IMG/VR virus record: IMGVR_UViG_3300021376_000007
Direction: 5' to 3' (one strand)
DNA from: a virus
DNA length: 64,000 nt
The notes beneath the pieces were generated by a model, which was not told where the DNA came from, did no database searches, and was given only the letters and a program-made list of their open reading frames with translations. Positions 58,884-58,953 of this stretch are shown piece after piece; positions within the stretch are counted from its first letter, which is position 1, and every line of letters starts with the position of its first letter. The translations under genes and the position numbers were made by a program.

Positions 58884-58953
58884 TGGAGATGCTGGGAATC
58901 GAACCCAGATGATGGACATTGGCGAACCGCAGTCCCGAAGCCATTTCATCCCC
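58884..58953 (-). ncRNA. tmRNA-like tRNA-domain-only RNA
   Basis: GGGGATG/CATCTCC-A with G3-U70; 5' GGGGATGAAATGGCTTCG and 3' CTGGGTTCGATTCCCAGCATCTCCA resemble ssrA ends; no tag ORF. Confidence 0.65.

Follow-up and report, generated by a model that had tools for sequence, protein, structure and literature searches.

A minimal phage gene for the tRNA-like domain of tmRNA, likely to compete with host tmRNA

Results

The mini-tmRNA locus

The window analysed here is the 64,000-nt stretch of IMG/VR record IMGVR_UViG_3300021376_000007. Between the genes of a 331-aa and a 100-aa protein, it carries a 70-nt RNA gene that we refer to as the mini-tmRNA (Table 1). A preliminary description had placed this RNA at 58884–58953 without stating its strand; the coordinates are correct, and the gene is on the minus strand, with nt 1 at 58953 and the discriminator at 58884. 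The acceptor stem is composed of seven pairs, namely G1:C, G2:C, G3:U, G4:C, A5:U, U6:A, and G7:C. The segment GGCUUCG (nt 12–18) is unpaired and occupies the place of the tRNA D arm. Only 27 nt separate the D-loop analogue from the T arm, a 22-nt segment followed by a 5-nt junction. The 22-nt segment can form a hairpin that substitutes for helix P2 and the entire mRNA-like domain. As read from the sequence, this interval has no anticodon arm, reading frame, or pseudoknots, and the arm contains no stop codon. The G3-U70 pair with A73, the missing D-stem, and the normal T-arm, all of which had been described before, are likewise read directly from the sequence.

The unconstrained minimum-energy fold of the mini-tmRNA has a free energy of -23.7 kcal/mol; in it the G's of the D-loop are paired and the GGAC/GUCC hairpin is not formed. 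If pairing of the D-loop analogue is prevented, to match its open state in tmRNA, the hairpin is the best fold (-22.5 kcal/mol). Hence, the earlier proposal that a GGAC/GTCC hairpin replaces the mRNA-like domain holds with the D-loop open, but not for the unconstrained minimum. As all six copies found are identical in the short arm, covariation is unavailable for it. The bases following the discriminator are CC or CU depending on the contig, so the CCA end is not templated.

Table 1. Features of the mini-tmRNA locus in window coordinates
Feature	Position	Strand	Evidence and remarks
Upstream neighbour, 331-aa protein	59113..60108	(-)	No Pfam or PHROG match; relatives with 61-71% identity lack an adjacent RNA
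Conserved block, upstream part (93 nt), presumed promoter and 5' leader	58954..59046	(-)	One substitution (58955) between lineages
Mini-tmRNA gene (TLD-only, CDS-less)	58884..58953	(-)	nt 1-70 through discriminator A; RF00023, R1, copies in L010 and L133-L136
Acceptor stem, 5' strand, nt 1-7 including G3	58947..58953	(-)	Pairs with 58885-58891 (sequence read)
D-loop analogue, nt 8-18, 11 nt, no D stem	58936..58946	(-)	Aligned to invariant GG.UUCG block (R1)
Short hairpin, nt 19-40, closed by GGAC...GUCC	58914..58935	(-)	Best fold with D-loop open
Junction AUCAU, 5 nt	58909..58913	(-)	GAC or CAC at this place in the family and in host tmRNAs
T arm, 5-bp stem and UUCGAUU loop	58892..58908	(-)	Within the 25-mer common to 46 tmRNA genes
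Acceptor stem, 3' strand including U70	58885..58891	(-)	Sequence read; U70 invariant in the family (72/72)
First trailer bases	58881..58883	(-)	CCG in the window; CUG in three contigs of the other lineage
Conserved block, downstream part (77 nt), 3' trailer	58804..58880	(-)	One substitution (58823); GUAGGG...CCCUAC hairpin at 58877-58826
Downstream neighbour, 100-aa protein	58463..58765	(-)	Weak PHROG match; strongly diverged in the L010 lineage

Homology of the mini-tmRNA to tmRNA

The Rfam tmRNA model RF00023 matches 58881–58953 with 47.3 bits (E 1.3e-15 in the 64-kb window), which is only 0.3 bits over its cut-off of 47 bits. The alignment covers model positions 1–374 with the whole middle deleted. 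By comparison, the Rfam tRNA model RF00005 scores 23.4 bits on the mini-tmRNA, under its cut-off of 29. ARAGORN found six ordinary tRNAs over the window, and called neither a tmRNA nor a tRNA at 58884–58953. The tmRNA searches suggested in the preliminary description are thus divided, as the gene is found by Rfam and passed over by ARAGORN. We also built a family covariance model, R1, from 28 metagenomic phage sequences with the RNA of mycobacteriophage DS6A and that of the window left out; it scores the mini-tmRNA at 38.3 bits (E about 1e-6).

The 25 nt comprising the T arm and the 3' acceptor strand occur exactly 54 times in bacterial references (one genome per species). Forty-six of these occurrences are full tmRNA genes according to ARAGORN, and none is a tRNA. 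The genuine tmRNAs sharing the 25-mer belong to Acidimicrobiia and other Actinomycetota (tag AKPQLALAA), and to Patescibacteria and Saccharibacteria. Their first eight bases are the same as those of the mini-tmRNA, and a similar D-loop block comes next. The ssrA-like character previously noted therefore applies to both ends, and since both match genuine tmRNAs, the mini-tmRNA corresponds to tmRNA ends with about 280–350 nt missing between them. Among isolate phages, megablast of the locus returned zero matches, and blastn of 73 nt returned only T-arm matches to tRNAs.

Other gene types were inspected and rejected. A canonical tmRNA (ssrA) is ruled out by the absence of an mRNA-like domain with resume codon and tag frame, and a tRNA by the absence of D and anticodon arms together with the RF00005 score below cut-off. 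A two-piece or permuted gene was considered because the tmRNA_permuted model aligns with 25 bits to the T arm, the 3' strand, and the downstream GGGGAAUG, but the GGGGAAUG segment lacks a D-loop block. Apart from a sub-threshold match of 20.9 bits at 39540–39619, the window gave no further match to tmRNA or permuted tmRNA, and the relative G006 gave none. The tag ORF is absent, as first described, and a search of the window and G006 for a separate coding piece yielded none. On sequence grounds, 58884–58953 (-) is confirmed as a real gene for the tRNA-like domain (TLD) of tmRNA, with predicted alanine identity and without a tag template.

A family of phage mini-tmRNAs

We searched viral contigs of IMG/VR with a pattern consisting of 5' GGGG..G, the D-loop block, a 15–45 nt gap, and the T loop. 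This loose pattern matched at least 119 viral contigs. At least 111 matches have a perfect 7-bp acceptor stem in the expected register; they comprise at least 81 distinct sequences, and G3:U70 is present in all listed. R1 recovers the TLD-only tmRNA of DS6A with 63.5 bits (JN698994 28478–28560, where GenBank has no annotation). The type is already known from this mycobacteriophage and is common in phage sequences; it is not a new category, and novelty of the window RNA is not supported.

The family alignment contains 73 distinct sequences among the matches listed. In it 98.6% of cells are paired, a figure to be read with acceptor pairing as a selection criterion for the family and several bases set by the pattern. 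Compensatory double changes occur in 14 of the 20 pairs, and neither the pairing nor the covariation score of the alignment was reached in any of 500 shuffles. The P2 helix, the inner hairpin, the outer T-stem pairs, U70, and A73 lie outside the search pattern. GG.UUCG is invariant across the family alignments. U70 and A73 are invariant in 72/72 distinct family members among the matches listed although they lie outside the pattern, so alanine charging, and not only SmpB binding, appears to be under selection. This sequence pattern suggests that ribosome entry of the family RNAs matters, as does charging, since a pure SmpB sponge would need no charging.

The majority form, which includes DS6A, has a P2 helix of 5–8 bp, an A-rich internal loop, a small CCG...CGG hairpin, and a GAC junction (CAC in DS6A itself). 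In most DS6A-type members the A-rich loop follows P2 with the consensus U-A-A-A-R (A4 columns 36–43), and is itself followed by a covarying 3-bp hairpin. UAA, UAG, or UGA is found within the internal loop of 44 of the 73 members. We considered a stop codon in the arm ('alanine then release') as a defining feature and rejected it, as it is absent from the window RNA and occurs in only that part of the family. The A-rich loop is a conserved element rather than a strict stop codon.

The window mini-tmRNA has the lowest R1 score among the family members listed. R1 aligns its acceptor stem, D-loop block, and T arm, and skips the arm (23 nt versus 33 model positions). The majority-form arm, with its P2 helix, A-rich loop, small hairpin, and GAC junction, is not found in the window RNA, and it is missing from several other members as well. 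Aside from the arm, a G follows UUCG in place of the near-invariant A of the family, and the junction is AUCAU instead of GAC. At the base of P2, Watson–Crick G:C and A:U pairs presumably take the place of the usual non-canonical pairs. The base after UUCG and the junction adjoin the expected SmpB contact on the TLD. As it is these bases that are changed, binding of the window RNA by SmpB is not assured. A plain hairpin arm also occurs in a few other members, which are 59–65 nt forms (e.g. L012, L046, and L071); we therefore treat the window RNA as a divergent member and not as a separate class.

Conservation of the mini-tmRNA and its surroundings

The mini-tmRNA is identical in 70/70 nt in a second phage lineage, represented by L010 (IMG/VR) and four metagenome contigs, L133–L136, of which one is the 70,488-bp contig of L010 itself. 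Elsewhere the two lineages are related in mosaic blocks of 68–95% identity. The identical RNA lies in a 243-nt block (58804–59046) with sharp borders and only two substitutions between the lineages, about 99% identity. The adjoining non-coding DNA cannot be aligned, and identity in the flanking genes is only about 65–70%. As judged from its borders, the conserved unit takes in about 93 nt upstream and 77 nt downstream of the mini-tmRNA. Judging by its sequence, this suggests that the block is a recently exchanged RNA cassette with its own putative expression signals. The perfect conservation fits recent cassette exchange between phages as well as selection.

We inspected the block for such signals. 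TGGTAAAAT at 59006–58998, about 45 nt upstream, could correspond to an extended -10 element, which it resembles in sequence. A consensus scan of the locus found no sigma-70-like promoter and no intrinsic or canonical terminator. The fold of the whole conserved block is no more stable than shuffles (z = 0.21). A recurrent promoter-like motif was also considered and dropped: two conserved flank motifs and TTTATGGGTAG, an element present elsewhere in this genome, do not exceed chance frequency and do not flank the RNA.

Six other relatives, whose upstream gene is 61–71% identical, have unrelated sequence in the mini-tmRNA slot. The complete 202-kb relative has zero RF00023 or R1 matches genome-wide. 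With the mini-tmRNA missing from relatives including this complete genome, the gene is accessory, and dispensable there. The preliminary description had named a lack of conservation in relatives as evidence against a functional RNA; the picture is mixed, as one related lineage carries it at 100% identity and it is absent from the six others, the complete genome among them. An atlas search with the 331-aa neighbour gave zero matches. The slot downstream of this 331-aa gene is occupied in the complete 202-kb relative by another element, possibly tRNA-like (L001:7056–7151 (+), and the same in L002). Its acceptor-like stem of 7 bp contains A3:U70 and is accompanied by discriminator G, the centre is taken up by a long hairpin, and the T arm carries a UUCGAUU loop; it has no Rfam or ARAGORN call, and its fold z-score is only -1.3.

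The phage and its host

The window genes include those for DNA-metabolism, sugar-nucleotide, glycosyltransferase, and protease functions, and one of the IMG/VR relatives is complete at 202 kb and has direct terminal repeats. From this gene content and these relatives, the window belongs to a large uncultured phage of about 36% GC in a roughly 200-kb group. The mini-tmRNA is located within a 2-kb patch of 47–57% GC. Patches of 47–60% GC are seen at 58200–60200 and 62200–63800, and the rest of the genome has about 33–40% GC.

Seven tRNA genes are found in the window with the Rfam model, six of them also by ARAGORN, and most are co-oriented with the surrounding genes. At 39543–39619 (-) lies an odd 77-nt tRNA-like RNA whose T arm is good and whose GC-rich acceptor stem, with discriminator A, is perfectly paired. 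It scores 34.5 bits with the Rfam tRNA model, 20.9 bits with the tmRNA model, and 23.3 bits with R1, and has no ARAGORN call. It has no normal D arm; an AGUUGG D-loop-like motif comes after, not before, a 4-bp stem, whose CUUAUAA loop could give the anticodon UAU.

SmpB is not encoded in relatives G001 and G006 or in the 48 window ORFs scanned. Neither an RF-1 domain, nor a CCA-adding enzyme, nor a tyrosine integrase (Phage_integrase) was found in the relatives searched or in these 48 ORFs. As SmpB, an RF-1-domain protein, and a CCA-adding enzyme are not encoded in the relatives searched or among the scanned ORFs, the mini-tmRNA must rely on host factors.

We attempted to assign the host from the shared 25-mer, and the result was ambiguous: the matched Acidimicrobiia have 53–65% GC and the matched Patescibacteria 32–49% GC, and the phage has about 36%. 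The window encodes a protein with an Rpf-type transglycosylase-like domain (PF06737) and an SLT-like domain (54194–55162 (-)). The Rpf-type domain PF06737 is typical of Actinomycetota and their phages. This protein is a weak hint to the host, beside the match of the tmRNA ends to Acidimicrobiia.

Other genes of the window were noted as well. Proteasome-subunit-like (weak), AAA ATPase, ThiF (E1-like), and subtilase genes lie at 23081–23689, 32110–33768, 34145–34894, and 44467–45990, respectively, all on the minus strand, and are possibly a protein-modification or proteolysis set of the phage. The region 4378–10373 encodes three family-2 glycosyltransferases, a HAD-nucleotidyltransferase fusion, a hexapeptide acyltransferase, and a PA14-domain protein; an NAD-dependent epimerase/dehydratase at 18225–19235 is listed with this glycosyltransferase cluster.

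Discussion

Possible function of the mini-tmRNA

Trans-translation is nearly universal among bacteria, and a phage RNA hijacking or blocking it would be a compact means to control host quality control in infection. The reading that we favour, and consider likely, is a real phage TLD-only (CDS-less) tmRNA gene of the DS6A kind whose product competes with host tmRNA. The gene, its family membership, its conservation pattern, and the selection on the alanine identity set in the family are seen in the sequences; every biochemical step of the competition is inferred, as follows. The mini-tmRNA would be transcribed with its leader and trailer; RNase P would cut the 5' end, the 3' end would be trimmed after the discriminator, and the host would add CCA. 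Host AlaRS would charge the RNA with alanine via G3:U70 and A73, and host SmpB, then EF-Tu, would bind it as they bind the head of tmRNA. As it has no resume codon or tag frame, the mini-tmRNA could not complete trans-translation, and would hence compete with host tmRNA not only for AlaRS and SmpB but also for entry to the A site when ribosomes stall. The predicted outcome is that ssrA tagging is damped or redirected during infection. The preliminary description had further tied such an RNA to ribosomes pausing at CGGA sites, for which we found no support, as nothing in the data bears on CGGA.

The alanylatable, SmpB-binding decoy proposed in the preliminary description coincides with a hypothesis already in print for the TLD-only tmRNA of DS6A (Mao et al. 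2009, as cited by Hudson et al. 2014, PMC4131195, and by PMC11915505). These citing papers describe strong inhibition of tmRNA in E. coli by a TLD-like molecule, irrespective of whether it can be charged, with SmpB titration as a possible cause (Mao et al. 2009, as cited in PMC4131195 and PMC11915505). Some features of the window RNA count against the competition reading: the internal arm and the bases next to the expected SmpB contact are altered, the mini-tmRNA is dispensable in relatives, its perfect conservation could stem from recent exchange of the 243-nt cassette, the RF00023 score barely exceeds the cut-off, and the locus has no recognisable sigma-70 promoter or intrinsic terminator.

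The main alternative to the favoured competition reading is productive tag-free rescue, in which the charged mini-tmRNA enters a stalled ribosome with SmpB and the nascent chain is taken onto alanine. Drop-off, peptidyl-tRNA hydrolase, or an ArfB-like factor would then resolve the complex, so that ribosomes on broken phage or host mRNAs would become free and the proteins would escape marking for proteolysis. Such rescue would account for the invariance of G3:U70 and A73 in the family, as the selection for charging that it implies would be superfluous in a pure SmpB sponge. Moreover, CDS-less tmRNAs persist alongside SmpB in some plastids and in mitochondria, those of jakobids among them, and are thought to help in dealing with incomplete mRNAs (PMC11915505). 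However, a release-factor-like (RF-1 domain) gene was not found in the relatives, the arm of the window RNA has no stop codon and only 44/73 family members have one in the equivalent loop, and the sole experiment reported, as described in PMC4131195, gave inhibition rather than rescue (Mao et al. 2009). We regard productive rescue as unlikely. The same doubt attaches to its fuller form, in which the charged mini-tmRNA would be a working tag-free rescue device that frees ribosomes stalled on cleaved or non-stop mRNAs and spares phage proteins ssrA-directed proteolysis, with the reduced arm and altered junction as a distinct minimal solution to engage SmpB and the ribosome.

Two further explanations leave the ribosome aside. 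It is highly unlikely that the RNA acts as a decoy for host defences directed at tRNA-like RNAs or at the tmRNA-SmpB complex, whether by sensing or by cutting; examples are nucleases acting on anticodons or on tmRNA, and systems that carry SmpB-like sensor domains. Counter-defence genes are often found in variable accessory slots, and the slot of the mini-tmRNA is of this type; SmpB-like domains also occur in predicted RNA-targeting restriction systems (PMC11090510). Yet no defence or anti-defence gene was recognised nearby, and that the family conserves all the alanine identity elements points towards the translation machinery. We give hardly any credence to a non-functional relic, be it a tRNA-Ala gene that has degenerated or a piece of host ssrA acquired at an attachment site; a degenerate tRNA and an attachment-site remnant had been raised in the preliminary description. 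Phages often integrate into ssrA, and the silence of ARAGORN, the marginal score, and the several relatives without the mini-tmRNA would all suit a relic. An att remnant, however, would carry the 3' part only, whereas both halves are present here and perfectly paired. In addition, no tyrosine integrase was found in the relatives, and the complete relative has direct terminal repeats. A degenerate tRNA is opposed by the RF00005 score of 23.4 bits and by a D-loop block that is tmRNA-specific and not tRNA-like. Decay is also hard to reconcile with 100% identity in two lineages amid unalignable adjacent non-coding DNA. Competition with host tmRNA is the reading we retain, and the strict conservation of alanine identity across the family favours models with charging and ribosome entry.

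Comparison with known systems

The closest known system is the TLD-only tmRNA of DS6A. Both RNAs are phage-borne and have the standard (non-permuted) order, G3:U70 with A73, a tmRNA-type D-loop, and a T arm, and both are devoid of a tag frame and pseudoknots. On RF00023, where the middle is deleted in both, DS6A scores 43.2 bits and the window RNA 47.3 bits. They differ in the arm. DS6A (83 nt) has a P2 helix, an A-rich internal loop, a CCG...CGG hairpin, and a CAC junction, while the window RNA (70 nt) has only a hairpin closed by 4 bp and the AUCAU junction, and its R1 score is 25 bits lower. The host groups of the two phages differ as well. The metagenomic phage mini-tmRNAs share the core blocks and the alanine identity set with the window RNA, which lacks their near-invariant A and GAC junction. 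The tmRNA database 2025 holds only nine 'Standard, no CDS' sequences (PMC11915505). Compared with the at least 119 viral contigs matched here, this number indicates that their abundance in viral metagenomes is under-reported in the literature; such RNAs are widespread in phages and overlooked by ARAGORN. Within this group the window RNA is divergent and very small, and it comes from uncultured phages of roughly 200 kb.

Organelles, too, have CDS-less tmRNAs: in some plastids and in the mitochondria of jakobids and oomycetes, these RNAs have a tRNA-like domain without a tag frame and are presumed to act with SmpB (PMC11915505). They are functional analogues of the window RNA, likened to it by description only; most are made from permuted two-piece genes, and they have a separate Rfam model. 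The canonical ssrA RNAs of Acidimicrobiia and Patescibacteria are identical to the window RNA in the 25 nt of T arm and 3' acceptor strand and in the first 8 nt, but they are 346–421 nt long and have pseudoknots and a tag frame such as AKPQLALAA.

Full-length tmRNAs are also found in phages. In Synechococcus phage S-CRM01 we noted an unannotated permuted two-piece tmRNA gene (L129:1490–1640; HQ615693 about 88373–88523, minus) directly after tRNA-Met and tRNA-Leu genes, in the order T arm and 3' strand, GGGG 5' strand, D-loop block, and tag-like frame. The full-length phage tmRNAs, known from Bxz1-type mycobacteriophages, Bacillus phage G, marine myophages (e.g. Melnitz), and cyanophage S-CRM01, resemble the window RNA in being phage-borne parts of trans-translation. 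In contrast to the window RNA, which has no tag reading frame, they keep one, and many of them are permuted.
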